64,000 bases of DNA from Amoebophrya sp. A120 (GCA_905178155.1 CAJINV010000012.1:2519407-2583406); one strand, 5' to 3'; counted from the stretch's first letter, positions 3,225-60,300 are shown. Notes: a model not told the origin generated them from the letters alone. Made by a program: numbers and translations.

Positions 3225-6200
3225 TCACTGCTCGCTCGCAGCAGTAGACTTGCGCTGTTGCATTTCCAGGCGGTAGGGCGACACCGAGACCCGGGAGAAG
3301 TAGCGACGGAAGTCGCCCAGCCGCATCCAGAACGCGCCATCGTCCGCCGCAACGAGCTTGACCTGGTTCGACGCTTCCTCGTTCCAGCAGCAGGAGGTGT
3401 CGGAAAAGGCGCCTTTCCACTCCCCAGTTCCCCACGGGTTGCGCAGCTTCACGATGCGGACTTCGCCGGACAGGGTCCCGGACCCGAGCCCGCAGCAACA
3501 CCCGACCGGCACGGTCGCCACGTCGAGAATGCTGTAGGCGTGGGTGGCGACGAGGCCGGTCATCTTCAGGTTCCACAGCATCGTGCAGATGGAGTAGCAG
3601 TCCCAGACGGGACAACAGACCAACGTGAAGAAGCAGTTCGCGGTCTCCTTCGCCACCGTGTACAGGCTGAAGAGGCAGTCAAAGCAGATGGGGACGCTCT
3701 TGCGACACACCGCGGCGCAGGGGTTCACGCACACAGACACTACCATGTTGTACACAATGGCCGGAAAGACAATGTTGGACAGAAACGGCAAGGATTCGAC
3801 GCTGGCGCACGCCATCCCGTTGTCGTTGTCCACAATGGTTCATCAAATGCAAAAATGTCTGGGTCTGGAAGGTTGGAACTTGTCATGCTGGATTTGGATT
3901 CCACAATAAATCTGTATTGCATGAACAGCTAAAGAGGTCCAGTTTTTGCCACGGCGAGAGGGCATTTCTCATGCAGTACAGGCATCAGGAAGCCCTCGCA
4001 ATAAAATCTGTGATGCTAGAGCATGCATCACAGACATCAGGAGTCATGCAAAATGTGCATGACAAACCTTGCACTCTTCCAGACCCAGACATTTTCGCAT
4101 TTGATATGGTTTCCTTCAGAATTTCGTACAAGTCGTCGTCGGTGAAGGTCCGGTATCGTGTGCAAAAGTATCGCATTGGTATAAATGTGAGTCTTGCATT
4201 ACAGATGTTTCTCTCAAGGTAAATCCACACTACGAATTTTATTTCTCATGCTGAGGAAATTTGTAATGCATTTATACGAGTACGATACTCTTGCAGTTCA
4301 TATCCGGGTGAGGCCGGAGGTGCTGACCAACCCCGTCTGCAACCCGGTGAGCGCATGCAGGACCTCGTACGGCTGGCCGCCCGAACCGAATTTGTCCCAG
4401 TCCCCGCCGAACTTCGCCTTGCAGTACGCCTTTTCCAGCAAAAGCGGCCACAGCTTCGAGGAGCCTTTGGAATTCGCAAACATTGGCTTGTTATGCGTTG
4501 CAAAAGTGTATCCTACTCGTATAAATGCATTACAATTATTTTCTCAGCATGACAAATAAAATTTCTAATGCGGATTTACCTTAAGAAGAAGATTTTTAAT
4601 GCGTGACTGCAATTACTACGAGTACAATACTTTTGCAGTTCATACTTGTTGGTTTCGTTGTTCACGTAAAATTGATCGTCCACCGTGTAGGTCTGCCACG
4701 TTCCGTCCTATGCATTGCAAATATGTCTGGGTCTGGAAGGATCCAAACTTGTTATCTTATGCTGTCTTTGGATTCTAAAAAAAATGTGTATTGCATGACC
4801 ACCAAGAGGAGCCCAGTTTGTGCAAGGCGGACGAGAGGGCATTTGTCATGCGGATTAGGAATCGGAAGCCTTCCAAAAATCTGTGATGCAGCTAAGTCGT
4901 GCACTACAGGCATCATGGGTCATGCAAAATATGCATGCCCGGTAATCTTCTAACTAGACCCAGACATTTTTGCAGTTGATACGTCGACGAACAGAACCAC
5001 GTTGTACTGTCCCGACGGGGTCATTTTCGAGTTGGCAAACAAGCTGGTGATATGGATTGCAAATATGTCTGGGTCCGGGAACTTGTAATGCTGGCTTTCC
5101 ATACCTAGAAAATCTGTATTGCAGAACCAACAAAAGTCGTAGCCTCTTTTGATGTGCATGCAAAAACGTAGTTTCTCATGTTGGTTTCCTACGAGAAAGC
5201 CTTCTGGAAAGTTGTCATGCCTGTCTGCATTCGGAACTCTTTCCATCATCCACATTTTAGCATCACAAGTTTCCAGACCCAGATATTTTTGCATTTGATA
5301 GGTGACCCGGTCCGGCTCTTCGGCCAGCGCGGACAGGGCGGCCATGAAATAGCAGTTGGCGATTTCGCCCTGTCCCAGGTCCAGCGGGGTCGGGCCTTGC
5401 TTGTTCTTCCACTTCTGGCCCCGTTGGTTGTTTTCCTCCATCTTTTGCTGCTCCACCGCCTGCAGGGCCACATCGTCCGGGGAGGCAGGAGCTTCTTCTT
5501 CTTGTTTTTCACTTTCCACCTTCGCCTGCGCAATGGATTCCCGGGACATGCCGCCGAACAGGGTCACACACTTCTTTCCCGTCATTCAGCGCCGGCATGA
5601 AGTCGCGCGCGCGGCGCCACTGGCCCCCGTGGGGGAGGTTTTTGTACACGCTGAGGTCCTCGGAAAAGGAGTCCAGCTGGTTTATCATTTGCAAAAACGT
5701 CCCCACACCAGAGTCAAGATGGGCAATCTGCTAGACAAACCAGCCAGCTTTGGTCGTTTGGCATGACAAATTTGTCCTCGTACTGTAGTCCTGTTTAGGT
5801 AGTTCAGCAGCATCACAGATCTAGTGCAACATGCTGACTATAGCATCACAAATTCCAAAACACGACTAGAACATGCGTCTCATGGCGCTCCACATAACAA
5901 AATTTTTTGGCATGCGAATTTGCATCACAACTATGGGATGGGGACGCTTTTACATATGATATGGTTCAGCGCGTCCGCACCCACGGCGTCCAGCTGCTGC
6001 CGCGCGGCCGCGCGCTGCCCTTCCTTCTCGGCATTCACCACGTCCGCAGTCTTGTCCTGGGCACACATGAACTTCTTCGCTTCCATATCAAGTGCAAAAG
6101 TGTCTGGGTCTGGAAGAATGCATGTTTGTCATGCTTGTCTGGCATGACTCTTAAATCTGTCATGCACGTTACCCAAGAGCTCCAATTTTCTGTGATGCAG

Positions 6201-6508
6201 GAACGCAGTTCGTCATGCAGAATAGGCAACACCTAGAAGCTCAGAAACTTGTCATGCTGAGCCAGCATTTGTGGCCTCATCATGAGACGCCACCCAGCAT
6301 CACAAGTTTCCAGACCCAGACATTATTTCACTAGATATTCCATGTCCGCGTCGTTCCGCTGGTGGTACTGCCGTCTTTTACAGCACGTCAAGGCCGCACA
6401 AAAAAAGGAGCAAATTACGTTGACCGTGACCGCAAGCATGTTCAGGAAAGCGGCAAAGCAATTGATGGTGCGCATCTGCACCGTCGCAACGCCGCCGCCG
6501 AAAGGCAT
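3225..6508 (-). CDS. Calpain-family cysteine protease (CysPc domain), 8 exons split by 7 introners
   Basis: After removing elements: QGEIANCYFMAALS (Cys), VDGTWQTYTVDDQF, LWPLLLEKAY, HAYSIL (His), LRNPWG (Asn), DDGAFWM. One apparent 1-nt frameshift near 5580. Confidence 0.9.
3841..4106. mobile_element. Introner, family A (TIR core TGCAAAAATGTCTGGGTCTGGAA)
   Basis: CATCAAATGC...GCATTTGATA; direct repeat TGGTT on both sides; removal gives ETI-VDN in frame. Confidence 0.92.
4154..4302. mobile_element. Introner, family B (TIR core GCAAAAGTATCGTACTCGTA)
   Basis: TAT...ATA ends, direct repeat TCCGG, frame restored (TRTFTDDD). Confidence 0.9.
4492..4644. mobile_element. Introner, family B (opposite orientation to 4154-4302)
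   Basis: Direct repeat CTTGT, frame restored (NKPMFA). Confidence 0.9.
4709..4981. mobile_element. Introner, family A
   Basis: Direct repeat CGTCC/CGTCG, frame restored (VDGTW). Confidence 0.9.
5051..5300. mobile_element. Introner, family A
   Basis: Direct repeat GGTGA, frame restored (RVTSLF). Confidence 0.9.
5683..5961. mobile_element. Introner, family G (TIR core AAAAACGTCCCCACACCA)
   Basis: Direct repeat TGGTT, frame restored (LNQLD). Confidence 0.88.
6086..6337. mobile_element. Introner, family A subfamily A1
   Basis: Direct repeat TTCCA; highly similar to 48720-48971 and to the reverse complements of 43733-43987 and 53962-54213. Confidence 0.9.
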
Positions 6509-8198: not shown

Positions 8199-11100
8199 CT
8201 ACTCCACCTCCACCCCGAAGGTTTTCAGCGCTTTGCAGACGTATTCACACGCCTCACTGCTTTCCAACTTCAACACCAGAGTCCCCTTCGCTTTCCCGAA
8301 CGAGAAACAGACCACCAAATTCTCCTCCTCCGGCAGCTTCACGTGCTTTTCCAAATTCGGGAGATCGATTTGCTTCTTCGAATTTTCGCTTTTCACCAAC
8401 CCCTTAGTCACCTTCTGCAAGTCGGAAAGAGAAAACTCGATAGGCGGGGATATGGATTTTTGCGATTCTTGTGGTTCACCCGTAGAGGCAGAGCTCGTCG
8501 TCGTCGTATTTCGCATCTCTAGTTTGAATTCCGTTTTGGAAGATGTTGTTGTGGTTGTATTTTTCGAGTTCGATTTCTTCTTCGATTTACTCTTGCTGTT
8601 CACAGCGTTTTTACTTGTAGTTGCAACGACGCGGATGTTGGTTGACTCCAATTCCCCGGCACTGTTGAAGACCTTCGTGCCGACTCCGATGGTGGACAGA
8701 AGTTGCTCCCGCATTTTTTCAACCGTGATTTTTTTTTGGGACGAGGTTGTAGTCGTCGTACTCGTAGTCCCGGCACCTTTTTCAACAGCACTTTCCACAC
8801 TGATCATCTTCACGTGTTCGCTGATATTCCCAAAAGACGGCGGCAACAGGGACGAGCTACCGATGCTACTCGCAGGCGTGCTGACCCTCGGGGTGATGCC
8901 GTTTTGTACGAAACCCGAGCTATCCGGAGGGGCAGATCCGCGGACGACCTTGATGTGGAGAGGCGAGTCATGCATTGCCAGAAGCAAACACACAAAAAGT
9001 GATGATAGAAGATGAAGAAATCTTCACTTTTGCATATTTTTCATAGTTTATAGGTTTTTGCAGCATTTACTAGAAACGAATGACTAGCACGCAAGAGTTC
9101 ATCTTCATCAATACCTCTGTCCACCGCTGACGCAGTGCCCGGACCAGTACCTCCACTTTCGGATTCTTCTGGTAAGTTTTGTACTTTTGCGTGAAAACCC
9201 CGATTTTCGTCTCCCGCAATACCGCGACCGTCATGTTTTGAATCTGCGAAATTTCTTCAAAACAGCTGTAAACCGACGCGTTGCCGAAGGGGGAAAAAGC
9301 TTCACCCCCGTCTCCGCTCTCTGTAGACGTGATCATCTCACTCGCCGTCTCTTCCAGTAGCAAAATTTTTCCCATCAACTGCCGGATCTTTTCAATCACC
9401 TGCTGCTCCTCCGCCGAGGGGGTAGATGAACTACTGGTGCTAGTCGTGGTGCCACTACTCCCTCCAGCAGGGTGGACAGGAGTTTGCGCTTGGCTCCCCG
9501 CTGGAACGAGAAACTTCATCGGAGAACGGGTCGCTTGTACCGGAGGCGCTGGAGGGGGAAGATTTTCCTTGTTTGGGGACAGGAGAACCTCGGATTTGTT
9601 GCTGCCGGTGTTCATTTCGTCAACGCCGGTTGCAGAAGTCGCAGCTACTCCCGAAACAATTTTTGCGGCTGCAAAAGTACTAGATGCAGAAGATGCGTCA
9701 CCACTGCTTGCGTCCTCGGCACTACCTGCTGCTGATCCGCTCTGGTGCTGAAACAGGACCTGTTCGACCTGCTGTGCCAATCTGGAAGTTTTAACTTCCT
9801 GGGTTTTCTCGTAGTCGAGATTCACTTTCGGAGAGATCACCGGACTCTTTATTTTCTGCAGCCTGCTTTGCGGACTTACCGCTTGAACACCATTAAACGA
9901 CAATTTTGGACTGCTGTTGCTCGAGGTGGTATTCGCTGTTACGTTCGGAACCAGAGTAGAACTCGCCTGCTGCGGATGCTGCTGCGTTCCTACAACCACG
10001 CTGGTTTGCTGAATGCTTGGCCGGGTGGTTTGCTTCTTCACGAATTTCGTCGGGCTCGGAGTGTGCAGCGGTACCAAGTTGTGCAGTGTGTTTGGGGAAC
10101 TACGTTTTTTATTCGTGGTTGGACGATTGGGTCCGACGAGGACGTCCTGTGCGGCTGTTATTTTTTGTTCTTGTTGACCCCCGGGGATGATTTGCGCCGG
10201 CGGTGCTGGCGGAACTGTATTTGTCGCAGTGCTCGCCCCACTGGACACTCCTGTATGGAACTGTCAGGATTGAAATGGTCAAAGTTGAAATAACTTGCAA
10301 TGCATAAAATCGATACCAATTGAAAGCCCAATTTTTAAGCAGTGCATGACAAATTATCCGACCATCGGAAATCAATTTGTCATGCTGTTTGGGCACAGGC
10401 GACTGCTTTTGTCATGCTACTTTAGCAGCTCTATTTCAAACCCTAAACAGGCTCACAATCGGCCTCACTTGCCAACCCGGCAAGACAGGCACTTCATGCC
10501 TTGCATTTTATGCATCACAAACTATCTCAACTTTGACGATTTCAATCCTGACGCTTCCATATCCTGCAGCATGGTAGTAATTGAATTTCATCAAATTGTT
10601 GCTCGGGAGGTTCATTTCCTCGATAGAATTACTGGATTCTTTAGTCTGCTCCGTAACTGCACCAGGAGCTCCGTCAGCGCTAGAAGTGCCAGCACCGCCA
10701 TGCAAAATGAATGGCGATGATCCACCACCCCGTGTTAATGGAGACCCCGCCCGATTTTGATTCAGCTTGCTTCCCTGAATCAAGTAGCTCGGGGTCGGTG
10801 TTGGACTTGGGCTGCTGAATTCGGAATTCGAAGCCGAGGGGGAAGACCGTTGCGTGCGCGTCAGAAACGCCGGTGGGCTACTCAGCAAGTGCCCGGGTAA
10901 GAAACCCGGGGAGGAGGAAGCAGTAGCCTGGTGATTTATGGCGATGTTGTTGTAGTTGCTGGCGGCAGCTGCAGCACCAGCAGCTGAGTGGGGGCCACTG
11001 TAGTTGCTGTTGTGGTACAGCAACCCAGGTGGAACAGATTGTTGGTGCAGCTCCTGATGTTCTTGATAGTTCATGTTGATGCCATCGCTTGCGCCTCTAC

Positions 11101-15766: not shown

Positions 15767-16024
15767 TTTCTTATATATTTCTGCTCGACGGGAGCAGGGA
15801 GTAATAGCTGTAACACCAGATGACAAACAAGGAGATTACAAGTGGTGCCCCTAGTGTAACCACCTACTTGCCTTTACATGAGAGACTGTTGAGACTGACT
15901 GAAAAACTGGAGGCACATGCAACGGCAACCACCAACACAACATAAGTTGAAGTACTGGGAAGCAGGCATGATCTGAATATAACAATGAATTACGCGGCTA
16001 GAAGTCGGAACAACCTAGTTGTAA

Positions 16025-19000
16025 ATGAGGAACATTTTTGCAGCTCTCCTCTTCTTATGTGACGATGCTCCACAGACAAGATGGGCGTCCGACGAATCTT
16101 CAGATGAGCTAATATGCACCATATATACAAAGCGACGAAATGCTCCGAGAGCTAAAACTTGTGCTACAGCGATTGATTACCGATCAGCAGGCGGTTAAGT
16201 ACATTCATCCTAACGACAGGTAATTTTCGAAATAACAAACAGCGAGCCTCGAAGATTGCGAAATCGAAAACGATAGCAACGCTACTTATTGCTTGTAGGC
16301 CTGAGAGAAAGCACAAATAAGGGAGAACGAAGCTCCGGGGAGGTTTTGAATTTATTCCGGAGACACTTTGCACTCACGACTGACGAAAGCGATAAACGAC
16401 GACGACGACACATTGATATCCTCAGCTCTAGTAGTTCTTGAACATTCGTCGGGAGACACAACGGCATGGCCATCTTCGAAGGAATTTCAATTTCTTTGAG
16501 CTGCTGCTGCCTATCCAGTTACCTGAACTCCAGGTCGTGCTGAATTTTTCTAGTAACTGCTGCTATCTGAGTTATCATCCTGTACCTGCTGCCTGAACTT
16601 CAGGCTGCACTAAATTATCCTGCTACCGGAGTTCTTTTAGTAGCTGCTGCTTACCCCGAAAGGAATAAAAAACGCAAAAACGGCGCTGCGTTCGTGGTTC
16701 GGTAGTGCGTGGTGCAGTTTTTTCGTGACCGGAAACAAATTGCGGAGAGCCGGGCAGACCTTTTTTGAACGTCGTTCTCCTTTTTCATCGTCGCGTTTTT
16801 TCGCTGCATCGCCCAAGACGAAAACGCTAGTAGTTCTCGATCAAGATCAAAAAAACCCTCCTTCATTCCGCACCACTTCACCGCCGGCTCCTCGCAAGCA
16901 TCTTCACTTTTTTCTTCTTTACAAGAAAACCGTAGGAGCTCCTTGCTACGGCTTGACCGTAGATAAACTTGCAAAGCTCTGCTTTGATGTCGCAGTGCTC
17001 TTTTGGATGTTGTGCGCAAAAAATTCTTCGAAAGAAGATGATCGTAGTACTTACAAGTAAAAGGCACGGCTTTATTTCTCGGGCCTACGCCTCCATGTCC
17101 ATACGTAAAAGTGCGGCAAGGGCAACCCCCCACTCTGGTGGGCCATGAGTTTGAGTCGAAGAAGTCTACATCTACTAGCGCCCTTTGTTCAACCATTTCT
17201 CCGCTGTCTTGATATCTTTCACCGTCATGGCCATATCGCTCCTCAGCTGCTTAAGCACAAGCTGTTCGAACTTAGATTTGCCTTCTGGTAGCGAGGCCTC
17301 GCCCACTATAGATTGAGATTGTCCACCTTTCCTATTGGCTCTGTAGAGAGGTTGTCCACCTTTCCTATTGATTCCGTGCCTGACACGGTTGTAATCGTTC
17401 TGATACTCCTCAGAAGCGTACTGGTCCGCAAAATCGTCGAGGGCTTTTTGGGACCAGCCCACCCGGGTCTCCGTTTTCAGCCCATCGAAGAAACCGAAGC
17501 CGCCGACGAGACCGAAAAAGCGGACGGGGCCGCCAGCCTCAACCCCCGACGCCATAGCTTCGAGGTCCTCTAAATGGCTGGCTGCAAGCGCTTGGGCGTC
17601 TTTCGCTCTTGCGAGACGCTCCAATGTTGCGCGACGCGAACACGCGAAATGCTCCTCAGACATGATATTATGCGCACCCGCAAGGCTCAACTCTTTTTCC
17701 ACCAATTCCGTTAGCTCTCTGAAGACCTGCGCAGGAGTGCGATTCTCTTCCGGGGCGGTGGCCCAGGCAGACTTCAAAGCGTCGCGAAACTCCCCGCCCA
17801 ACAAGCCGTAGGAATTACACAGGAACTGAAACAGCTCGTGGCTCGGGACGAACCGGCGTGGCCCCCGCGCGATTTCCTCGGCCTCGATGGCTTGCGCGTA
17901 TCGTCCGAGGAGCGCCATAATCGCATCGACGCTAATCTCGATCAGTTTGCTTTTGCGGATCGTCCCCGGAAACCCCTCCCAGCCCTCGGACCCGTTCAAA
18001 TTCCGCCAAGCAAAAACAAGGTTGACCACCTTGCGTTGGTGGGCTGGGTCTTTCTCCTTGCCGATGGCCGCAAGCGTGTGCCCAAGGTGCTCTTCCGCTT
18101 GCGTGCGCAGGTGCGCGAGATAGCCCTCGAGTTTAGCTCCCGACAGATTGTACTTCTTCCTAGCCACGGCGGCGTACCGATCCTCGTTCAAGTCCTCCGC
18201 GTTGATTCCCAAAGCCTCGCGGATCTGTCGCATTTGACTTGTTCTGAAGCTCCACTCACCGTCTACTTCAGGAATGCTCGAATGTTCGCCAGGCATCTCC
18301 TCAAGCAAGTACGGGCTTCCAGCGACTAACTGAATCTCCTCAATACCGGGCGGGAGGATAGTGCCCAACTTCTCGTTCCTCATACGACCCTGCAATAAAC
18401 TATCAACTGTTACCGTTTCGCATGTAGACGAGTTGCAGCCGTAAACGATCTTGTCCTTTGCTGGTACTAGCCCCGAAGCCCAGTGGTGCAGCTTTTGTGC
18501 CGCCGTAGAAGCGTCGAGGCTCCTAAGCAAGGTCTTTAGCTTACTTCCGCCAAGCCCAACATATACGCGGATCAGCTGCGGATCTTCAGAATTAGACGTC
18601 GAGCCGGCCGCACGCAACAAGCCGACGCCTTTCACAAAGCCGGGCGCTAAGTACCCGGCTCCCAACACGGCAAGGGCCGAGAACATGACCCCGCCAGGCA
18701 CCTTATTTCTCGTGGTAGCCAACATTTGATTTCCACTGGAACTAGAAGCGCAGACGCCAACGAAAACAAAAACTATCGATGGACTCAGAGTTTGAATTGG
18801 TGTCTTCCGTAGTACTAGTAGTAGTAGCAAGCCAGCGTTGCTTTTTTACAAAAAAATGATTTCGCTCTAGCGCGCCACTGACTTGGCCAGAAGAAAATTT
18901 GCAAGAAAAAGAATACTTAAGTACTCTGTGCGTTCGATCAGAGTCGCTGCCAATCAATGCAACACAATAAAAAAGCAGAACCAGGATGAGAGAGAGACTA

Positions 19001-19663
19001 GTTGTAGAAGGAAGGGCTATACCTATAGCTATTCAATCTGAGGATAATTTTAGGAATAGGATGTCTTATTTCGTTGTCAATCGTTCCTGATGGAGATGTT
19101 GGATTCTGCCTGTTCATCTATACTGATGCTTTGGCGTCCATGCTAGCTTGGTCGGCAGATGGCAAAGCCTTTGAATATACTCCCTCGCGCAGATCTATCG
19201 ACGATCGAGTTTATTTGCGAAGTGGATCCTTTTTCTTGCATGGGGTCCCCATGTGAAGAACTTTTTTGCCGATTTATGTGAAGATGAACTTTTTCATTTT
19301 TACCGATTTCTTCTTTGGTTTATACTATAACGAAAGCACACATTTGAGCCTGAAGATCCTGGATTGAACCGAAGAGCTGGCGCAATATCGGTGAATCGAG
19401 CAAAGATCTTCATTTGACAAACGTTTCAAACTGCTCCTAGTGTAATCAAATCACTTGTGCGAGACCGATTTTAACGAAAACGAAAGAAGCCAACCATCTT
19501 TTCTGATGACAATTGATATGAATTCAATACGCCAACCGCAGTGCTGATATCTGGGACCAAAACTTCCGTCTTTCTGCTTTTTGCCAACAAATGGGAGACA
19601 AACCACTGCAAGAGCAGTCGAATCCTGCTCATGCTCGCCATCAACGCGAGGATCGGGATCGCT
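16025..19663. repeat. Tandem segmental duplication, copy 1 (gene plus both flanks)
   Basis: Collinear with 19823-24497 from ATGAGG...GCAGCTCTCCTCTTC to CGCGAGGATCGGGATCGCT. Confidence 0.9.
17175..18686 (-). CDS. Hypothetical protein, possibly secreted, paralogue 1, intronless
   Basis: 551-aa ORF; probable start MFSALAVLGAG (hydrophobic N-terminus). The downstream ORF 16651-17196 is also conserved in copy 2, so a frameshifted extension is possible. Confidence 0.7.
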   Translation of the reverse strand: MFSALAVLGAGYLAPGFVKGVGLLRAAGSTSNSEDPQLIRVYVGLGGSKLKTLLRSLDASTAAQKLHHWASGLVPAKDKIVYGCNSSTCETVTVDSLLQGRMRNEKLGTILPPGIEEIQLVAGSPYLLEEMPGEHSSIPEVDGEWSFRTSQMRQIREALGINAEDLNEDRYAAVARKKYNLSGAKLEGYLAHLRTQAEEHLGHTLAAIGKEKDPAHQRKVVNLVFAWRNLNGSEGWEGFPGTIRKSKLIEISVDAIMALLGRYAQAIEAEEIARGPRRFVPSHELFQFLCNSYGLLGGEFRDALKSAWATAPEENRTPAQVFRELTELVEKELSLAGAHNIMSEEHFACSRRATLERLARAKDAQALAASHLEDLEAMASGVEAGGPVRFFGLVGGFGFFDGLKTETRVGWSQKALDDFADQYASEEYQNDYNRVRHGINRKGGQPLYRANRKGGQSQSIVGEASLPEGKSKFEQLVLKQLRSDMAMTVKDIKTAEKWLNKGR

Positions 19664-20860
19664 TGAAGCTTTAGCTTTTGCTTATTTTTTCTAGAAAGAC
19701 AAGGCGGACACAGCCTTCTTTGATAGTTCGGAGGAACAAGAGATGAAAAACTATCAGGCGAGCCAGAAACTGTCTATGTGTTCGTGTAACTCTGCGCGCG
19801 GTGTCAAATCAAAACGAAATCCATGAGGAGCATTGCAGCTCTCCTCTTCTGGTGTGACGATACTCCACAGAGAACATGGAGCTGGACATCCAACGAATCT
19901 TCAGATGAGCTTGCTAGTATGCACCAAAAGCGACGACATGAGCCGAGAGCTAAAACTTGCGCTACAGCGATTGATTACCGATCAGCAGGCGGTAGTTACA
20001 TTCATCCTAACCTCAGGTAATTTTCGAAATAGCAAGCGCGCCTCGAAGATTGCGAAAGCGAAAACGATAGCAACACTAGTTATTGCTTTTAGGCCTGAGA
20101 TGAAGCACAAAGGGGAGAAAGAAGCATCGGGGGGTTTTGAATGAACTTATACCGGAGATGCTTTGCACTCACTCACGAAAGCGATAAACAAACTACGACG
20201 ACGACGCATTGATATCCTTAGCTCTAGTAGATCTTGAACATCGCGACACGCAGCGGCATCTTCGAAGGAATTCTATATTTTTTTCGTAACTGCTGCTTAT
20301 CCTGTTGCCTGAACTCCAGGCTGCATTGAATTGTTTTAAGTAGCAAGTGCAGCCCCCTGAGTTATCCTGTACCTGCTGCCTGAACTTCTTCAGGCGCTGA
20401 ATTATCCTGCTAGTACCCGAGGCCGAGTTCTTGGAGTAGCTGCTGCTTAATTATCCCGAAGGAAAAAAACGCAAAAACGCCGCTGCGTTCGTGATTCGGT
20501 AGTGCGCGGTGCTGCTTCTTCGTGACTGGCAACAAATTGCGGAGAGCCGGGCACCACTTTATTTTTGAACGTCGTTCTTCTTTTTCATCGTCGCGCTTTT
20601 TCGCTGGTGCATCGCCCAAGACATAGTAATTCTCGATCAAGATCACAAAAATCCTTCTTGTTCTTCATACATTCGCCACCACTTCATCGCCGGCCCCTCG
20701 CAAACATCACTTTTTTCTTCTTTACAAGCAAACCGTATGAGCTTGCTACGATCTGACCGCAGATAAAAAACCTGCAAAGCTCTGCTTTGGCGCAGTGCTC
20801 TTTCGGTTGTTGTACGCAAATTCATCTTCGAAAGAAGATAACCGACGCAGTGCAAGTTGT

Positions 20861-23543
20861 TTAAAAGGTAGAGGTACGGCTTTCCTCGGGCCTACGCCTC
20901 CAAGGGTAAACGGCGCCTCCCCTGTTCTGACTTATGTGTGACTTTGAGTCGAAAAAGCAGTAAGGAAAGTATGAAAGCCTCAGGTTGGAAATCCTCAAAG
21001 TGGAAATAATAATAATTTGTGATGCAAAAAAACGACTCCAGTTGAAGCGGCATTAGTAGTCGGCGCATGACAAATTTCCCGGGCACTTAAAGCATGTCTG
21101 TCATGCAGGCTAAGGCAAAGGGGTGCCCTTCTGTCGTGCTAAGCAGCATTCCAATTCTTCAACCTTAGCAGGATAATAGTCGGCCTCCATTGCGTCCTCT
21201 GCAATACAGTCTTTTTTGCGTCGCATTCCATGCATCACAAATCATTTCCACTTTGAGGATTTCCATCCTGAGGCTTTCATAGAAAGAAATCGGCGGTGAT
21301 TGGCGTCCATCCTTCACACGGCGAGCAAGATATCCTGAGTAAAAACGTACCCACACCATAGTCAAGTTGGGGAATCGGCTAGACAAGTCCACAAGTTTTG
21401 GCTGTTTTGCATGACAAATTTGGATTCGTAGTGTAGTGCTGTTTGAGCTAGTTCAGCAGCATCACAGATCTAGCATACCATGCCGATTGGAGCATGACAA
21501 ATTGCAAAACACGATAGGAAAATGCTTCTCATGGGGCTCCGCATGAGAAACATTTTCAGCATGCAGATTTGCATTACAACTCTGGTGTGGGTACGTTTTT
21601 ACTCAGGATACAAGAAGTTAAGGGCTCATCCTTCAAACGGCCCTCAGCTGTCTTGATATTTTTCACCGTCGTTGCCAGATCGCTCTTCAGCTTCGCGAGC
21701 ACAAGCTGTCGGAACTTAGACTTGCCTTCTACTAGCACGATCTTACTTCCTCGTCCGCGGCGGTAGAACTGGTCTGCAAAATCGTCGAGGGCTTTTTGGG
21801 GCCAGCCCACCCGGGTCTCCGTTTTCAGCTCGCCAAAGGAATCGAAAAAGCGGACGGGGCCGCCAGCCTCAACCTTCGACGCCATAGCCTCGAGGTCCTG
21901 TAGATGGCTTGCTGCGATCGCTTGGTTAAATTTCACGGTTCGCAGCGTTACGTTCCGGCTACCTTGAACCACCGCACGCATGGTGTGATGGGTATGTGTC
22001 AACTCACGTTCCACCAAATACACCAGATCTTTGAAGACCTGCGCAGGAAGACGATTTTGCTCCGGTAACGGGGCGACCCAGGCAGACTTCAAAGCGTCGC
22101 GAAACTCCCCACCCAGCAAGCCGTAGTACCGGCACAAGAAGCTGTATGGAAGCGTCAGGATTGAAATCGTCAAAGTTGAATTGATTTGTCATGCATAAAG
22201 TGGATGCCAGTCGGAGGCCCAGTTATCAAGCGGCGCATGACAAATTTTCCGAGCACCGGAATACAATTTGTCATGCTGTTTAGGCACAGAAGACTGCTTT
22301 TGTCATGCTACTTTAGCAGCTCTATCTCAAACCCTAAACAGGCTGACGGTCGGCCTCACTTGCCATCCCGGCAAGACAGGCACTTCATGCCTTGCAATTT
22401 CTGCATTACAAGTTATTTCAACTTTGCCGATTTCAAACCTGACACTCCCATAAGCTGAACGCACGTGGGACGAACCGGCGTGGCCGGGCCATTTCGTCGC
22501 TGGTATGGAGTTCTCAAACGTTACATTCTCAACTGTTACATGGATTTGTCATGCAAAACTACCATCATCATCCACAAGATCAAGCTGCTGGGCATGACAA
22601 ATTTGCGAAGGGCTAAACAGCGCCTAAATTTGCGCGGGATTTGTAATGCAACTTTTGCAATCTTCCCCCCTTTGTTTTTGCCATTCTTGCATTACAGATT
22701 CATGTAACAGTTGAGAATGTAACGTTTGAGAACGCCATAGCTGGCTTGCGCATGTTCGACGAGCGCCGTAACCGCACTGACGCTAATCTGGATCAATTTG
22801 CTTTTGTCGATCTCCGGAAACCCCTCCCAGCCCTTGGGCCCGTTCAAATTCCGCCAAGCAAAAATAAGCTTGACCAACTTGCGCTGGTGGTCTAATTTGC
22901 GTCCTGGGTCATCTTTCTCGTCCTCATCCATTTTCTTGACTTCGTCCCCAATGGCCTCTTCCGCTTGCGTGCGCAGGTGCTCGAGATACTTGTCGAGTTT
23001 GGTTTTGTCCGGAGGCCTGTGCTTCTTTCTAGCCGCGGCGGCGTACCGATCCTCGATCAAATCGTCCGCGTTGATTCCCAAAGCCTTGCGGATTGACCCC
23101 ATTGCGTAGCTCCACTCACCGTCAGGAAATTTGGCACCTTCGACAGGCATCTCCTCAAACAAGTCCGGGCTTCCAGCGACTAACTGAATCTCCTCAATAC
23201 CGGACGGGAGGATAGCGCCCAACTCCTTGTTCCTCATACGACCCTGCACTAAACTATCAATTGTTACCGTTTCGCATGTAGAGCTGCAGCCGTAAACGAT
23301 CTTGTCCTTTGCTGGTACCAGCCCCGAAGCCCAGTCGTGCAGCATTTGTGCCGCCGTAGAACCGTCGAGGCTCCTAAGTAAGGTCTTTGGCTCCTTACTT
23401 CCGCCAAGTCCAACACGTACTCGGATCCACTCCTGTGGGTCTTCTGCATTAGACGTCGAGCCGGCCGGGCGCAAGCCGACGCCTTTCACAAAGCCGGGCG
23501 CAAAGTTGTACGCGGCTCCCAACACGGCCAGGGCCGAGAGCAT
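20861..23543 (-). CDS. Hypothetical protein, paralogue 2, 4 introners
   Basis: MLSALAVLGAA...; spliced product aligns with paralogue 1 (RRFVP..FLC..YGLLGGEFRDALKSAW); 3' end uncertain. Confidence 0.65.
20970..21281. mobile_element. Introner, family C variant
   Basis: TATGAAAGCCTCAGG TIR, direct repeat GAAAG. Confidence 0.9.
21331..21610. mobile_element. Introner, family G
   Basis: TIR TATCCTGAGTAAAAACGTACCCACACCA, direct repeat CAAGA. Confidence 0.92.
22145..22452. mobile_element. Introner, family C
   Basis: Direct repeat AGCTG; very similar to 10254-10561; absent from paralogue 1. Confidence 0.92.
22504..22739. mobile_element. Introner, family I (TIR TATGG.GTTCTCAAACGTTACATTCTCAACTGTTACATG)
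   Basis: Direct repeat GCTGG; absent from paralogue 1. Confidence 0.92.
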
Positions 23544-24628
23544 GACCCCGCCAGGCAACTTATTTCTCGTGGTAGCCACCATTCGACTTCCACTGTAACT
23601 AAAAGCGCAGACGGAGACGCCTCCGAAAACTATCGGTGGGTTCAGAGTTTGAATTGTAGTAGTAGTCCTTCGTAGTACTAGTAGCAAACAAAGTAGTCTT
23701 GCTTTTTTTACAAAAAAATGATTTGTTCGTTCCAGGCCAGAAGAAAATTAAAATTTGCATAGAATACTTATTCTGTGCGCTAGATCAGATTCGCTCCCAA
23801 TGCAACAAAATAAAGTAAAAAAGCAGAAGGATGAGAGACTTTGACTTGGTGGACGAAGGGTTTTACAACCCGGGGATAAGGATATCTCTCTTTTGATTAA
23901 TGGCGTCAATCGCTCCTGATGGAAATGAATTCTACTGCCTGTATTTCAACATCTATTTCTATACAGATGCTTGGGCACCCATGCTTGATCGAGGCAAGGC
24001 CTTCGAATAAGAGTATACTCGCACAATAGAATTATCGGCGATCGAATTTATTTCCGACGAGATGGATCCTTGGATTATGCAGTCGCCATTTGAAGAACTT
24101 TTATACCGATTTATGTGAAGAACTTTTTTCCCGTTTTCATCTTCCTTGGTCGTTTATACTTGAACGAAAGCAAACATTTGAGGCTGAAGATCCTGGATTG
24201 AAGTTGAACCGAAGAGCTGCAAGATCGATGAATCGAGCAAAGATCATCCTCATTTTATAAACGTTTCAAACTACTCGTGCAATCTGCAAATCACTTGTGC
24301 GAAACCGATCTGAACGAAAACGCTTCTTTCTAACGACAATTAATGACAATTAATATGAATTCAATACGCCAACCACAGCACTATCTGCGACCACGACTTC
24401 CGTCTTTCTGCTTTTTTCCAACAAAGGGGAGACGAACCACTGCAAGAGCGGTCGTATAATCCTTATGGTCGCCATCGACGCGAGGATCGGGATCGCTCCC
24501 AGATGTAGCTTCTCTGAAGAACTAACAGCACTGAGCGCGGTGTAATCAATATCAAGCGCACCGCTGTGTGGTCGCCAACCATAATATACGATTGTTCTAT
24601 CCCCAGAGAAAACAACGCTGTTGGAAGT

Positions 24629-27336: not shown

Positions 27337-27700
27337 GATGCGCGACCACGCGGGTTTCGTTCAGGTTCACCTCAGAGGAACATGATGAATTTATTCTATT
27401 CGGCGCTTTCGCCTCAGAATATCCTTTTACGGCCCTGCATTCTCATTATCGCCTGGATTGGTACTCTGTCTGCTGCTGAGATCGATTGAAAAGATTGCGC
27501 TGCTGATGTAGAAGAAGAAGAAGAAGAGGACGACGATGATGACAAAGTAGAACTATTTCTGTAGTTGAAGCTGTTGCTGTCATTTGTGGTTTGGGAGGTA
27601 CTACATAGCTGCTGCTGATCTAGAAGTCGTGGTAGTAGTGGAAGATGATAAAGATGAAGACGATGACGAAGATGCAGAAGAGGCAGGGACTACTGATCCT

Positions 27701-48971: not shown

Positions 48972-50402
48972 GACCTTTAGTAGATGCAGCTTCATCGCGA
49001 GAGAGATCACAACTTTAGGTTCATTTACAATAGCGGTATAAAAATTTTGTACTGTATTCCTAAATATTTACAAAACTACAGAATATTTTAGAAGTAGAGT
49101 GCTTTTTGCAAATTCATTATCAGAGTAGAGCTGACGATAATATCATGCTTAGTATAACTAGAAGCCCTGAATAATGCCTGTTAGCAAACCTCGTGGCGAT
49201 AGTGTCGTGACTTTTTACAGAGCGTTCTTTGGTCGGCTAGTTGTATTCTTTCTCTGTATGATTCTGTGCAAGTAAGATGAGACTGCGTTTCTTCATTTGT
49301 GCAGGAAAAATGCAGCTTCGGGTTCGGGATTTTCTTTTTGAGGCGAAAATAACAGTTCGCTATCGCAGCTGCATGCTGGTAGGCATGGGAGCTACAGTCA
49401 ATCATATTTGTATTTCGCCGCTTAAGCTCGGCTCCTAGCGTGGTAAAAAGAAGTCACGGTTTGCAACTAGTCCTGTTTTATTTCTACCTGCAGCTATGGG
49501 AAAGAGGTATCTAGTAACCCATTGTATTGCGTTCCTGCGCCCTGATCATATGTAATTTTTTTCGATACAGTTTGTTCGTTTTGGTGAAACACCACGAGAG
49601 TGAAGATCAACTTGAACTTGCATTTATTGTCAACATCTTCAGCCACAATTATGAGGTTGCTACTTCTGAAACTGGTGTTTTCGTAACTCAGTCGTGGAAA
49701 ATAATGATCCACTCCGACTGGATTACTAGTCTGATCTGCGAAACAAGTCTGATACTCTGCTGTGCAATTGATCTGCTGTAATAAATAGGAGGTCTGATAA
49801 CTGATAAAATAACTGTGACAATTAGTAGTAAATAAAACGATCTGTTAAATAAAGTGTCTGATAGTAAAACAACAATACGAAACTTTTGACAACAAATCTT
49901 GAAACATAAAATTGTCTTTCTTCCAGTCCATACAAAGCATTTTTACTTCGAGACTTCGAATGCGGTAGAATAGCTGTCAACATCGGCCTACAAGCTTATT
50001 CATACACACATCAATATCATTTCCTGTGTGATGGTCCGCAAAATCTAGGTGTGAAAACATTAAATCGGTTTTTCATAGTTAGAGACAGCCGAACTGCTCG
50101 TCTCTACTATTTATTCTGTGTGATTATTCTTGAAACTTGGATGATGTCTGATCCTTTCTTTTTTCCCGAAACTTTTTTCTTCTCCGATCAGAAAACCTGA
50201 GGCGTGTTTTGCGATCATTTCTCCACTTGGCAAGCACTTTCACTTGAAGAGGGGCGGCGCAACTAGAACAAGACACAGCATACGTCTGTATCTGTAATGC
50301 TGTCCTTGCATGACAACGATGTTGGGCTACCTACTTAAGCAACGACATGAATCAGAACCTTGTTGAACCGCATGACAAAATAAATCCGGAAACTGATACC
50401 GT

Positions 50403-51604
50403 TTAATCACAACCGATCTGCTCCTCGATTTCTTGGATGCGGCGCTGCAAGCCCAGGATTTGTTGCTGCACCAGTATGACGCGAAACTTGTGGAAACGAT
50501 CACTTCCTTTGCACATTTATTTCGCACGATAATGAAGACCATCACCATCTTCTCGCTTCTTTCAGCATAATTAAATGGTTGCTTTATCTGTGTGCTCTGG
50601 TAGCCGTAGCCCGTCGCAAGTTGTGGCATGCGTGCAATAAATTTCTGTGCGAAAATAAACTTCAGCATGGGAAATTAGCGTTTGTAAACAATTTCTTTTT
50701 TTCATAAGGGACGTCTTCTCGCCCTTCAGAGTGGTAATCTGCTGCTGCAGTCGGGCGTTGTCCTGGAAATTGGTGATTTTTTCGATAATTCAACAAATTT
50801 CAATTTAATTGTGATGCAACTTCCAGCATGAGAAACGATATTTCTATATGCGTCGTTCTGCATGACAAAGAACAATTGATACCGCGCGCTGCTGGGCGAA
50901 GTGGCGCTTGACCTCATCCTGCATCCGCTGGACATCGGCAACCATTGTCTTCTTCAGATGCTATGCAGCATTAAAAACGATTCAAAGTACTTCTACTACC
51001 ATGCAGCTACTTTCATCTTGCTACGCATGACAGTGAGTACATCTACAATCTGTCATGCGCAAGATGAGCCTTGCATGAGTAAAGCATCGAATCAACCTGT
51101 TCACTTGTGATAACTCCTGCAATTGGGCCTGGTAGTGCTGTTCGATGTTCTGCTTGTCGTTACCTGGAGATCATTTTTTAGGACAAAAGTCATAGATTGA
51201 TTTGTCATGCAAAAACAAGACAATAGATAGCCAGACAGCTTTGTCATGCGAAAGTACCATAAACCGAAAAAAACATCAAACTCTAATCTAGTAAGTACGC
51301 AGAGACTCGATTTCCTGTCGCTGGGCGGCGAGCTCCTCGTTTTGCATGGAAATGAAGTCTTCCAACGAAGCAAGCTTTCCCTTCAAACCCGTCAGTATGC
51401 AGTGCAAAAGTTTATTCGTGCTTGTCGTAGTTTTTGCATTACAAATTTTCTCAGCATGGCAAATGGGATAATTTGTCATGCTGAATGACCTAAGAAACTA
51501 GGTTTGTCATGCATTTTTGCAATTACTACGACAAGTAGAAGTACAACGTTGCTTTTGCAGTGCATAGTCGGCATCATGCTGTTAAAGCTCTCCGCCGTCG
51601 CCAT
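50403..51604 (-). CDS. Small coiled-coil protein (~125 aa), 5 introns at different stages of decay
   Basis: Reconstructed MATAESFNSMMPTGLKGKLASLEDFISMQNEELAAQRQEIESLRNDKQNIEQHYQAQLQELKKTMVADVQRMQDEVKRHFAQQRADNARLQQQITTLKGEKTSLQQQILGLQRRIQEIEEQIGCD*, with continuous heptad character. Confidence 0.75.
50475..50706. other. Decayed introner-type intron
   Basis: TAT...ATA kept, direct repeat lost; element plus 5 nt joins KTSL-QQQI. Confidence 0.65.
50763..50882 (-). other. GT-AG intron with introner remnants
   Basis: GCG|GTATCA...TTCCAG|GAC; contains TGTGATGC and GCATGACA. Confidence 0.7.
50962..51112. other. Decayed introner-type intron
   Basis: TATGCAG...TGTGATA; element plus 5 nt joins QE-LKK. 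Confidence 0.65.
51164..51298 (-). other. GT-AG intron with introner remnants
   Basis: C|GTACTT...CTCCAG|GT joins LR-NDKQ; two TTGTCATGC motifs inside. Confidence 0.6.
51396..51566. mobile_element. Introner, B-like
   Basis: Flanks GTCAG/GTCGG; frame restored (MPT-GLK). Confidence 0.82.
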
Positions 51605-53592
51605 TGGCGAGTTCTTGACCTTCGTTTTGATGTGTGTAGGGGTGTTTGCATCACAGTCTAAAATGGACGCGCTGATTATGCATGACAAAGTGAAAATGTT
51701 GCACGATCTCTACCAATTATGCTGATTATGCATGACAAAATGTCTCACCATGTTAATAACCAAGAACCACAAGTAGAATACCATCGGGCTCATGACAGAC
51801 TGGGCCATTTTTTGGGTTGGTGTTTTTTGCTTCAAAAAAAGATGAAGCAAAGGACTTTGTCTTTAAGTTTTGTCCGACGAAGACAATTGAACTTCGGTTT
51901 GTTCGTTGCTCGTGTAGTTTGTCGTGTAAACACAACCCCCTTCAAGAAAAAATCTCTCAGCTGTGATTTTTCAGTCAGATTTTCGAAAATTCAAGCGAAA
52001 GCAATTTTTATGAATCGGGATGGACAGGAGCTTGCTAGACCAGTGCGTTTTTCTTGAAGTATACAGCGCTATCTCTGACGTACTTCGACGATAATATGTT
52101 GACGAGAGAACGGACGGTTTTGTTTGTGTTAGTGTTCTTGGTGTGTAAAGTAAATGTTCCGAGTGCGTAAAAAAAACCATGCTCATCATGATGCGGAGAA
52201 ATGAGGTTGAGGGTTTGTTCTTTTCGTGTTGGGGGGAAGTGAAAGAAAAAGAATGATTATAGTCGCGGAAAATATATTGTGGTCGGGTTATACTTGTGCT
52301 ATTGATGTTGTGGTTGTGGACGAAATTCTACGTTTTTCTTGGCTCAATTCTCCGAGGATCTAAAGAGCAAACGCGACACATAGTTAACCCCGACGAGACG
52401 AAGATGATCCGCTCTCAAAAAACCAGCTGTTTCTATATTCGAACACGAAGTGAACACGTAGAAGACGCTGTTGCAGTTGACCACCAGACGTCATCTTCAC
52501 CAAATTGAAATTTCTTCACATACAAAGCAATATACGTCGCATGCTGGTGCTAAAATGTAGCTTGCTAATTCTAAAAATGGACCGATGCACGAACAAACTT
52601 TTTTCTAGTGCGACGATTCCATCTGTGCTCTAGAAGTACCTCTACTCCTGCACGTCGACGTCCTAGGCGAGGCATTGCGCCACAACGCTGTCGCAGCTGC
52701 ATAAGCGACTGCGACAATCGACGGTAGTATTTGTCGTGTGTCTGAGCCAGAAATACAAATCTAGCGCTACTGTCTTTCTAGGTACGTCGATCGTGTCTTT
52801 CTTTTGATGATGATCATGCCGAAAAAATGTGCTCCTGCCACCGCACCAAGAACTTCTTCTTTTTCCAAAACGATAATCCGACCATCTAGTGCCCCTTCTG
52901 ATTCTTAGTACTGCGATCCGGCAGGATATCCACGTTGCAGTTACCCTCCTTCCTTTTCCGCATGAAGAGATCCAGATCGGCTGTAAATATTTGTTGTCGG
53001 ATCATGCCTACCAACTATTTTTTGCAACGGCTCTCAAGCATCAGAAACGCAATAAACGACTTACCCTTTCTAGTTTTTGCAAGAGAAACACTTTATGCGG
53101 GTTTTTAAAAACCACACTGATATTACCTCCAAAACAGTTGCACTCCGCGCGGAAATACTGGTAGCGACACCTCGGATCCTCCTCTCCTAGTTCACGGGCG
53201 CAGCGGCAGAATTGCTGTTTTTGTTCTTGATTGCCTCTTCACGCGTAACAACCACAACCACCTGCAAAGAGAGAGAAACGCGATCACATATGACAAGTAA
53301 AAATCCAAAACCGTCACAGTCATGATATACCGAGAACCGGATGAGACAGCTGTTGACGTGGTTTTTCTGCGACATTGTCCGTGGATCATCGCTGTACGGA
53401 AAATAGGCGGTCACGTAGTCCCAACCCGCGGGAGAGCCCTGGTGTTGATTTATTTTTTCCAAGACTTATACAAGAACTTCCTTATGCTTAAGTCCTGTCT
53501 TTCTCCCATGCACACGAATCTCATCGTACTGATCAATCCTACTGCTGCCATGTGGTTCGCAAAATTCTTTACCAGCGCCTTCTCCAGTGAGT

Positions 53593-53898: not shown

Positions 53899-53961
53899 CG
53901 AGTACCCCTTCGGGTAAAACCCCTCGGTGTGTATGGAAGCAAAATGCAGGAGTACTAGGTG

Positions 53962-54213
53962 TATCAAATGTAAAAATGTCTGGGTCTGGAGACTTGTGAT
54001 GCTGGGTGGCGTTTCATGATGAGGCTACAAATGCTGGCTCAACATGACAAGCTTCTGAGCTCCTAGGTGTTGCCTATTCTGCATGACAAACTGCGCTTCT
54101 GCATCACAGAAAAACGGAGCTCTTGGGTAACGTGCATGACAGATTTAAGAGTCTCGCTAGACAAGCATGACAAACATGAATTCTTCCAGACCCAGACATT
54201 TTTGCATTCGATA
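53962..54213. mobile_element. Introner, subfamily A1 (reverse orientation)
   Basis: Flanks AGGTG/AGGAG. Confidence 0.9.
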
Positions 54214-54999: not shown

Positions 55000-55259
55000 T
55001 ATCAAATGCAAAAGTGTCTGGGTCTGGAAGAGTGAAACTTGTAATGCTGTCTGCGGATTCTAAAAATATCTGTGTTGCATGAGCAGCAAGAGGAGTCAGC
55101 TCTTGGCACGCGGAGAGGGCATTTGTCATGCGTAATTAGCATCAAGAAGCTCTCAAAAAATCTGTGATGCTAGCACCAGCATGACAGACCTGACAGGTCA
55201 TGCAAAATGTGCATGACAAGCCCCGACTCTTCCAGACCCAGACATTTTTGCATTTGATA
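55000..55259. mobile_element. Introner, family A (non-A1 interior)
   Basis: TIRs intact; left flank altered by a 30-bp deletion relative to the duplicate. Confidence 0.88.
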
Positions 55260-57347: not shown

Positions 57348-60300
57348 TCACTGCGCCCCACTCAAGATGGCCATGGCTTGCTGGACGGCTTCGATCTCTT
57401 GCGTCATGGCTGCCTGCCTCTGGTATCCACAGTAAATTTCCCGCACACGTACAAATGCGGTCTCTGCATGACAAAACTCGGCTTCGATCCTACTTTAGCA
57501 TGACAAGTTTTACGCCCCAGATTGGTGAGCTTTGTGATGCATCTTGTACATGTACCACGGGAGATTTGTATTGCATATCTGGTCGAAGTTTTGCACGACA
57601 AAGTCGCACTCCATGTGCAGGGCCTTCAGCGCCTCCGCCAGTTCCTCGATCTTGGTCAGCGTGGACTTCAGGTCGGCCTTGCACTGGTGCAGGTCCCCCT
57701 CCGACTCGGCCTTGGACTCATATCCTGAGTAAAAATGTCCCCATACCAGAGTCAAGATGGGGATCTCGCAACAGAAATCGAGAAGTCTTGGGGGCCAAGC
57801 ATGGCAAGTTTCTCTCTGTATTGTAGTGCAGTGTAGCAGGTACAGCCGCAACACAAATCCAGCTACTCATCATCTTTCCAGCATTACAAAGTCCAAAACA
57901 CGATAGAAAACGCCTCTCATGGGGATGCGCATTACAAATCTTCCTGCAGCTGCAAATCTGCATGACAGCTATGGGGTGGGGACGTTTTTACTCAGGATAA
58001 CTCAATCGCGGTGTTCAGCTGCGCTTCCTTGTCGGCAAGGTCGTTTATCACACGAAAAAAGTGCTACAGTACACACTTTTGTGGTGAATTCTGCAACACA
58101 ACCATGCCTTTCCAGCACGAGAGAGGCCGTCTGGCTTGCTTGGTCTGCAACACATTATGTAACTGTAACACTTTTTTCGTTGCATATCTTTGGAAGAATC
58201 CGCAATGAACTTGTCGTAGGCGGTCTGGGCCTCCTGCTCTGCCAACTGCGACTTCCCGACGGTCTATGAACTGCAAAAGTATCGTACTCGTATAAATGCA
58301 GGTCTTGCATTACAAATTTCTTTGTCAAGGCAAATCAGCATTACAAATTTTATTTCTCATGCTGAGAAAATTTGCAATGCATTTATACGAGTACGATACT
58401 TTTGCAGTTCATACGGTCTGCTCGCTGTCGATGATGATCTCCTCAATCATGCCCATGATGCCCACGCCTATGCATTGCAAATATGTCTGGGTCTGGAAGA
58501 TACTGAACTTGTAATGCTGTCTCTCGATGCTAAGAAAATTTGCATTGCATCGCCAGCAAGAAGACTCCAGTTTGTGCTACGCGGAGAGGGTATTTCTCAT
58601 GCGGTGGAGGCAGCGCAAAGTCCTCTAGAAATCTGTGACGCTAGGGCATGCATCACAGACATCATGGGTCATTCAAAATATGCATGACGAGCCTGGCAAT
58701 CTTCCAGACCCAGACATTTTTGCAGTTGATAACGCCGTTTTTCTTTTTATATCCGCCAGCTTCCAGGCCAAGCGGGCCCCCGGGCTGCTGCAGGAATTCT
58801 TCGGAGTCCTTGTCGTAGAAAGACTTCAGCTTTTCCTTTGCCTGCTTCAAAATTTTCTGCGTGATCTTCTGGTCGGAGAAGATTTGTTGGTACTCGGCGT
58901 TTTCTTCTTTTCGGTTGTTGGTCGCAGACTGGATGTCAATGTGCAATTCGGAGATTTCCTTCTTGGTGTTGGCAATGTGGAATGCAAAAGTATCGCAGTA
59001 CTGGGAAGTGTAAACTATAGGACCACAAATTATGTCGGCCAGAACGAAGACAGAACTTGTAATGCTGTTGTAGGTCTGGAAAGAGTTTTGTCATGCATGA
59101 CTGCAAGAATTTATCCCGGGTACTTGCGATGCTTTTGCACTGCATACGCAATCGTGGCTTCTAATTCCGCGATCGTGTTTTCCAGCTTCGTCTTCTTTCC
59201 CGTCAAGTCCTCGGCTAAATATTTCATTTGCGTGGTCTCCTTATCGTTGCTGTCAAACCCGGCGAGGCAGTAGTCGCGCTTCTTCACCTCGTCCTTCATT
59301 TTTTGCTTCAGCTCGGTATCCACAGGAAATTTCCCGTACACGTACAAACGCAGTCTCTGCATGACAAACTTACTGGGCTTCGATCCTAGTTTAGCATGAA
59401 AAGTGTTACTTACAACGCTCCAGATTGAAATTGGTGAAACTGATTGTGATGCATCTTGTTCATGTACGGGAGTAAATTTGCATTGCATATTCCGCAACCA
59501 ACTCCGTGATCATCTTTTTCACTTCCTCAAACGCCGCCAGCTGCACCTTCGTGGCCATCAGCGACAGCTCCGGGGCGAGGAAGGCCTTCTGCCGGAGCAA
59601 ACTCGCGGCTTTCTGCTTCATGGAACTGAGCGTGTTTCTGGTTTTGAGCTTCGTTTGCAGGAACAGCGTCGGCTTCAAAGTTTTGTTAAACTGGTCCCGC
59701 GCCTCGTCAGAGGTCAAGATGTCCACAGTGGCTTGCAGCGCCTTCAACTCCTCGGTCTGGGCGGCCGTCCTGGCTTCCAGCTCCTTTTTGTCGGCTGCGG
59801 ATCTTTCGTTGACGTCCTTTAGAAACGCTTTGTCCGCCTCTAACGTGTCCTTGGCCTCCTTCAGCGCCTTTTTGCTGCGCGCCAGCTCCTCCAGACCCCT
59901 CGCGAGCGCCTCTTTGTTCTTGTGCAGCTCCGCCCTTCCCGCGGCGATCTCCTCGCGCTTGGCCCTTCGCAACGACTTATCAAATGCAAATATGTCTGGG
60001 TCTGGAAAAGTGCAACGTTTGTCTTTGTCATGCGCGTTTTGCATGACGCATCAGGTCTGCGAGGCATGCCCTGGCATCACAGATTACTTGAGATCTTTTC
60101 CATGCCTTTTCCGCATAAGAAACTGCCTCTCGGCTTGCTCAAAAGTGGACAGCTTTATTGGTATATCATGCAACACAGATTTTTGCATGATTCAGCTTTA
60201 GCATTACAAGACGCACTCTTCCAGACCCAGACATATTTCCTATGCATACGACTCGAAGGATTGCAAGTTGGACGCCTCGTCGTCCTGGGCCTTTTTTTAT

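Follow-up and report, generated by a model that had tools for sequence, protein, structure and literature searches.

Most introns of Amoebophrya sp. A120 are introners, and their mobilisation and splicing were stated as open questions when they were described (PMC7789003). In the sections of that paper cited here, they have inverted repeats that start with TAT, seven variable bases and AAA, direct repeats of 3-5 nt, a length of about 240 nt, NT-NN splice-site pairs (Table S4) and co-oriented host genes. The elements studied here are alike in these respects: the terminal profile of their TIRs begins TAT-N7-AAA, direct repeats lie at the exon borders, removal is of a non-GT-AG type, and the elements form repeated families. 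They differ in that these sections, figures aside, mention no internal motif common to different families, no spacing rule, no fixed cut register and no A at position -7. In the same sections Farhat et al. found no transposase in A120 and argued against general mobilisation by a transposase. A TIR-flanked, integrase-like introner family (family 38) is reported from A120 in the cited part of PMC12130899, the Dataset S2 of which contained neither the name Amoebophrya nor two TIR words.

According to the cited part of PMC1636448, it is established that transposase binds subterminal repeats of the Emigrant MITE, and there are reports of such binding in Sleeping Beauty, CACTA and hAT. As in the Emigrant/Lemi1 type, where short direct and inverted sites inside the TIR are partly TIR-like and their arrangement matters, we found a repeated motif inside the TIRs that is conserved above the spacers and has a set geometry. 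In contrast to that system, one code here extends over at least 17 families with different TIR bodies, its sites being candidate binding sites; they fill the element with a 31-32-bp step, and the elements are removed from transcripts. For integrase-related DNA transposons, the cited parts of PMC2836005 and PMC10045372 give ends of the types TGT, TNT..AYA or TA..TA and duplications of 4-6 bp. By ends and duplications alone, our elements resemble Ginger2/TDD, IS481EU and IS3EU/GingerRoot (T-N-T-like ends, 4-6-bp duplications, 5 bp in TDD-4/5). Their target duplication falls within the 4-5 bp of Ginger2/TDD, but they end in TAT[GC] and not in TGTNR as Ginger does, and IS3EU/GingerRoot duplications measure 6 bp. 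The euglenid nonconventional and Fritillaria non-canonical introns, as presented in the cited part of PMC11282704, are likewise TIR-bounded, MITE-derived and non-GT-AG. They have another end consensus, whereas here the U at +2 and the A at -7 are constrained on the transcript strand, which points to a spliceosome-like reading. Neither the motif nor its spacing nor the -7 A was described in the literature searched (subscription papers, theses and figure logos being outside its scope). The elements are thus already known, and the cross-family grammar and the tip code appear to be new.

The window, i.e. the whole stretch analysed, comprises 64,000 nt of the A120 assembly (CAJINV010000012.1:2519407-2583406). 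Together with 152 further loci it amounts to 666 kb, in which we detected 522 elements, 59 of them in the window, with 17 multi-member families. The loci, at least 152 and all from one assembly, were found by scanning 14 of 64 parts with the TIR of one family, which is over-represented in the sample. The elements themselves were detected by a TIR scan, which gave no candidates on three control sequences, and by a profile scan; several decayed window elements were missed. The elements mostly measure 110-350 bp and have TIRs with TAT[G/C] ends (TAT...ATA) and a 5-bp target duplication, all five bases of which matched in 378 of 514 elements and four in another 105, detection having favoured this feature. 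Families insert in both orientations, and the window genes lie almost all on the minus strand.

Several other structures were recorded in the window. A tandemly duplicated gene (15870-19800 and 19840-24500) carries three elements only in its second copy, the first copy thereby providing natural empty sites. Two duplicated gene regions (53932-54213 and 55000-55259) contain elements of different subfamilies at nearly the same site; one of these looks nested in an older TAT-ended remnant, and a contig joint goes back 594 bases there. A TIR element of the GTATCGTACTCG family at 31276-32357 has grown to 1082 bp through a tandem repeat of the CCCTCTCGCG type, and a stretch in loci L018/L019 is 78% similar to it. 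A 5'-truncated reverse-transcriptase element (27370-28954, minus strand, PF00078 at 28092-28883) is flanked on both sides by a 14-bp duplication and seems to lie within an intron.

The element at 6086..6337 has relatives at 48720, 43733 and 53962 and a 95% identical copy in locus L005. Record 1 of contig set X1 skips it, joining 6338 onward to a 119-nt exon at 5962-6080. Its features and the neighbouring calpain region are as follows.

3228..5585, minus strand: coding region of the host calpain (PF00648); removal of five elements with 5 nt each gives a 414-codon open frame
6081..6085, plus strand: left 5-bp target-site duplication, TTCCA
6082..6338, minus strand: predicted intron of 257 nt (one base, TAT...ATA, four bases), with the register taken from other joints
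6086..6337: introner, i.e. a non-autonomous TIR element, of 252 bp; TGTCTGGGTCTGG family, TAT...ATA ends
6086..6115, plus strand: left TIR, the first 14 bases of which resemble a degenerate half-site with TGC at offsets 7-9
6088, minus strand: candidate branch nucleotide, the A at -7 of the intron, where the TIR at the transcript 3' end has the third base of its TAT
6127..6134, plus strand: octamer TGTCATGC, offset 41 counted from the left end; it forms a dyad with 6142, of which it is the left half
6142..6149, minus strand: partner half-site GCATGACT with one mismatch, 15 bp from 6127, forming a TGC-N7-GCA dyad
6158..6165, plus strand: octamer TGTCATGC, 31 bp from 6127
6191..6198, plus strand: octamer TGTGATGC, 33 bp from 6158
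6211..6218, plus strand: CGTCATGC, exact in the paralogue at 48845, with a weak partner GCAACACC at 6226
6250..6257, plus strand: octamer TGTCATGC, with an inverted copy 47 bp away at 6297
6297..6304, minus strand: octamer TGTGATGC at offset 33 from the right end
6308..6337, minus strand: right TIR, which RNA fold prediction pairs with the left one (z -5.1)
6337, minus strand: U at +2 of the intron, where TAT begins at the transcript 5' end; unchanged in all 402 elements
6338..6342, plus strand: right 5-bp target-site duplication, TTCCA

The first-pass annotation had placed same-strand octamers at 6127, 6158, 6191, 6211 and 6250; four are exact, but 6211 has one mismatch. Its distances of the first motif from the terminus held for the elements at 5051 (33), 34086 (32), 3841 (40), 6086 (41) and 22504 (43), but the site near offset 42 in the element at 10254 is TGCAATGC and not an exact copy. 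At 5511-5586 on the minus strand, the calpain frame overlaps out of frame with an upstream 156-codon frame that spans the 6086 element; the contigs give the same letters there, so this is either a real frameshift or a separate upstream frame.

The octamer TGT[CGA]ATGC occurred 199 times on both strands of the window, compared with a mean of 7.5 and a maximum of 13 in 100 dinucleotide shuffles, and the most over-represented 8-mer of the window was GCATGACA. The full site is longer, GCAT[GCT]ACA followed by RATT, with the variants GCAATACA and GCATGAGA. The detected window elements contained 171 of the 199 copies (12.4/kb vs 0.56/kb outside), and the densities in the fetched loci were 11.6/kb within elements and 0.65/kb outside. 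The density in predicted coding DNA (0.14/kb) was at chance level, and no motif-rich class was noticed other than elements and introns. All 17 multi-member families carried the octamer, and exact copies were absent from only 26 of 514 elements (8 elements longer than 450 bp excluded). Thus, the enrichment of about 12/kb inside against 0.6/kb outside confirms that the octamer recurs in dissimilar families and is rare in exons and intergenic DNA, as had been noticed in the window at the outset.

Among 325 copies in 21 clusters, divergence from the cluster consensus was 3.4% at the seven fixed bases of the motif, 5.5% in TIR bodies, 14.3% in spacers and 17.4% at the free fifth base. The fixed bases are thus four times more conserved than the spacers, and from this constraint the motif is functional for something. 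The transcript strand had no effect on motif integrity (Mantel-Haenszel OR 0.94, P = 0.79).

Spacing was measured on 228 same-strand pairs, with one representative from each of 160 subfamilies. Pairs at 30-33 bp, mostly 31-32 bp, numbered 49 against 8.5 expected and were present in 19 of the 29 eligible families, whereas a single pair occurred at 9-12 bp (10.5 expected), and 15-17 and 23-29 bp were also depleted. The 20-22, 41-43 and 51-54 bp classes did not exceed the null level among these pairs, and the gaps of 20 and 39 bp quoted earlier for the 6086 element are not enriched spacings. Tandem duplication was rejected as the origin of the 31-bp step (spacer identity 0.27). Inward-facing pairs peaked at 15-16 and 47-48 bp and outward-facing pairs at 17 and 34-35 bp. 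The dyad TGC-N6-8-GCA, with TGC 6-8 bp upstream of GCA, was seen at 112 of 371 anchors, i.e. about 37 anchors per gap compared with about 7 at other gaps, its second half being often degenerate. The distance from the TAT end to the first inward copy was 32-36 or 40-45 bp and in no case below 26 bp. About a fifth of the ends (64 and 59 of 320 in two readings) fit a relaxed half-site in their terminal 14 bases, which places the nearer class of first copies 31 bp from a terminal half-site.

The 10.5-bp amplitude was significant in all three orientation classes, and 10.5 was also the best period for the distance of inward sites from the terminus (P = 0.004-0.017), the periodicity check proposed with the initial claim. 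When the main peaks (31-32 and 16/47 bp) were excluded, the signal mostly vanished for same-strand and inward-facing pairs and persisted for outward pairs with relaxed sites. The proposed phasing at about 10.5 bp therefore holds for the preferred spacings, which are helically in phase, but not as a continuous ladder of same-strand copies, which is absent; a few fixed geometries are found instead. Such helical phase is the behaviour expected of a protein that binds one face of duplex DNA. The central proposal of the first-pass annotation, a common code across dissimilar families that resembles a protein-binding one, is upheld: the motif is conserved, read on double-stranded DNA and arranged in helically in-phase geometry.

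We consider it probable, at roughly 60%, that the octamer forms the core of a repeated site bound by one shared, probably integrase-like transposase that would move all families. Dimers of this transposase would occupy sites on one helical face and bring both TAT ends into contact, and a staggered cut would give rise to the 5-bp duplication. Copies that lose the motif grammar would no longer multiply, so that the motif would look conserved among copies and yet decay like neutral DNA after insertion. Removal from RNA would be separate, with a relaxed spliceosome likely reading the TIR tip through an N-TAT[G/C] donor, the hairpin of the TIRs and an A located seven bases upstream of the 3' cut. 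None of 205 ORFs of at least 230 aa in about 0.67 Mb was a transposase, and the same sequence contained no TIR pair longer than 1.1 kb that could mark an autonomous element. The family TIR had 0 matches in viral contigs, and prokaryote genomes also gave 0 matches. A looser pattern gave one match in viral contigs, which was rejected as a chance match inside a phage ORF; its contig (L153, 1-5448) is perfectly palindromic, probably an amplification fold-back artefact. Two further observations speak against a transposase: the sites run through the whole element and not just near its ends, and four TIR-less introns of one gene keep exact copies.

These observations can also be read in favour of a host protein that recognises the code on double-stranded DNA and either helps the elements to transpose or labels the segment in chromatin, whereby splicing factors would be drawn in as it is transcribed, a possibility to which we give clearly less weight. 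Strand symmetry and helical phase are compatible with any DNA-binding protein, the sites fill the entire element, and no transposase was found among the 205 ORFs. The decay of the motif bears on this reading directly. Old singleton elements had 4.8 octamers/kb compared with 13.3/kb (duplication mismatch 0.195 vs 0.055), i.e. they retained 36% of the motif density, about the neutral expectation of 31-43% calculated from the decay of the duplications. Exact copies were missing from 16 of 43 singletons, and the octamers per element fell with duplication decay (2.99, 2.48, 2.32), both of which argue against a host role. Change rates were 3.4% for the motif, 3.0-3.5% for free terminal sites in all 402 strand-assigned elements and 5.5% per site for the duplications. 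Thus, motif decay after insertion seems roughly neutral. In a stratified old-minus-young contrast, spacers gained 1.7 points and the motif 0.8, the CI of the difference (-0.8 to +2.8) including zero. Single-copy changes were rarer in motifs (about 1.7%) than in spacers (about 3.1%), as a host protein would have it, and the rate for free terminal sites in clustered copies (2.0%) comes from 10 events, so that some constraint may act on the motif after insertion. Redundant copies would hide selection on single sites.

The persistence of the motif in introns that had lost their TIRs was originally taken to favour a host role. It was found in the following gene.

50197..51781, minus strand: gene stretch with four RNA-verified GT-AG introns without detectable TIRs (50197, 50763, 51164, 51620)

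Each of the four keeps 2-3 exact octamers, with both orientations represented, and one of them contains an exact 19-bp duplication (51671-51689 and 51721-51739) that includes, and regenerated, an octamer. The exact octamer was missing from 100 of 114 predicted TIR-less canonical introns, a selection from 273 predictions. The predictor was noisy: it found 1 of 7 verified canonical window introns exactly and passed over the motif-rich gene at 50-53 kb. Exact copies were also missing from 5 of 27 verified introns, namely three canonical and two non-canonical ones, and the latter two were nevertheless removed exactly. The 21 octamers in the predicted TIR-less introns were split into 10 sense and 11 antisense copies, and 4 of their 5 same-strand pairs were 32-35 bp apart, which counts in favour of a host protein. 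Persistence is real in that one gene, and the transposase reading does not fully account for its four introns, but the argument for a host role drawn from persistence is not supported. The chance-level density in coding DNA, with motif-rich DNA noticed only in elements and introns, also weighs against a host factor.

Contigs of runs X1-X4 were read as spliced RNA because the same contigs skip GT-AG introns, the runs being presumed to be RNA. Two raw-read runs, X8 and X9, yielded 2 and 3 reads, so that the joints are those of contigs. In all 18 element joints listed, the contigs lacked exactly the element plus 5 nt, and a GT-AG choice was possible at only 2 of the 18. One register fits all 18 listed joints, with one base before TAT and four after ATA; it was fixed by a single unambiguous joint and narrowed by two more. 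Three of the removed introns are given below.

50962..51112, minus strand: old element with mismatched duplications, where the RNA joint fixes the cut register (intron 50958-51113)
50475..50706, minus strand: old non-canonical intron without an exact octamer, removed exactly
58046..58186, minus strand: non-canonical TIR intron without an exact octamer but with two GCAACACA variants, removed exactly

The strand of each element was taken from a coding model, which contradicted the minus strand in 7 of 54 window assignments; later analyses used a stricter set of 402 elements. The tip strand-bias test concerned three positions of prior interest among 16 tabulated. The first T of TAT was changed in none of the 402 transcript 5' ends compared with 14 of the 3' ends (P = 0.0001), and the third T was changed in 12 of 402 at transcript 5' ends compared with 1 of 402 at 3' ends (P = 0.003). 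By the cut register, the first T is the U at +2, as in the GTAT, GTAC and GTAA donors of the seven verified canonical introns, and the strand-protected base at the other end is the A at -7, a candidate branch point. G-U wobble could explain part of the first-T asymmetry but not that of the third T. As the same elements served for both tests, the bias at the tips is a positive control for the strand-blind octamer. The splicing cues therefore likely lie at the element tips, apart from the octamer, and removal by a host reader of the octamer is disfavoured, since the motif is free of transcript-strand bias and decays much like the target duplications, whereas the TIR tip is strand-biased.

The verified canonical introns (8949-9114 and 50763-53330, minus strand) have an A at -8 in 6 of 7 cases. 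Predicted canonical introns had no evident fixed A at -7 or -8 (0.32 and 0.36). Some canonical introns start like G plus an element end, and this resemblance suggests descent from elements. An Rfam search of the window gave no match, and no snRNA was found in it.

A more speculative reading, which we regard as rather unlikely, separates two codes: a phased DNA grammar of dyads on a 31-32-bp step, through which one protein licenses dozens of families, and a splice code in the first three bases of the TIR. Whichever the orientation, the splice code would supply one end with a donor that has U at +2 and the other with a putative branch A at a distance of seven bases from the cut. In its boldest form, a domesticated host DNA-binding factor would hand the segment over to the spliceosome, introns being defined on DNA.

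The octamer could instead act in RNA, with GCAU-N-A-CA serving as a branch site (U-n-A-y) or a splicing enhancer that is present on both strands so that either orientation works. We find this improbable. The branch consensus is yUnAy, and the free position of the octamer coincides with its n; in addition, the first inward copy lies about 40-50 nt before the 3' cut, and intron 51164-51298 has sense copies only. However, 187 of 413 elements had a sense copy in the 60 nt next to the 3' end, compared with 218 of 413 that had the mirror copy at the 5' end, and an exact sense copy close to the 3' end is lacking in both the verified element 57424-57577 and intron 51620-51781. Together with motif integrity that is independent of orientation and the even split of copies in TIR-less introns, this led us to reject the octamer as a branch site, as its retention close to the 3' splice site does not favour the transcript strand. 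Pairing of opposite copies in an RNA stem was likewise rejected, as there was no covariation (75 of 194 concordant, 0.40 expected). Finally, that the octamer is a functionless relic of one ancestral repetitive element, the source of all families, is scarcely credible: the TAT ends and 5-bp duplication common to all families make common descent plausible, but the fourfold conservation over flanking spacers within clusters largely refutes the relic reading, and the geometry is kept in families without alignable interiors.

Under the preferred reading of a shared transposase, the common motif explains how families with different TIR bodies could use one enzyme. As a feature of all families, it provides a bait for the mobilising protein and a signature for the autonomous element. 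At the level of RNA, the N-TAT...ATA-N4 register with its A at -7 is a precise prediction for lariat sequencing.
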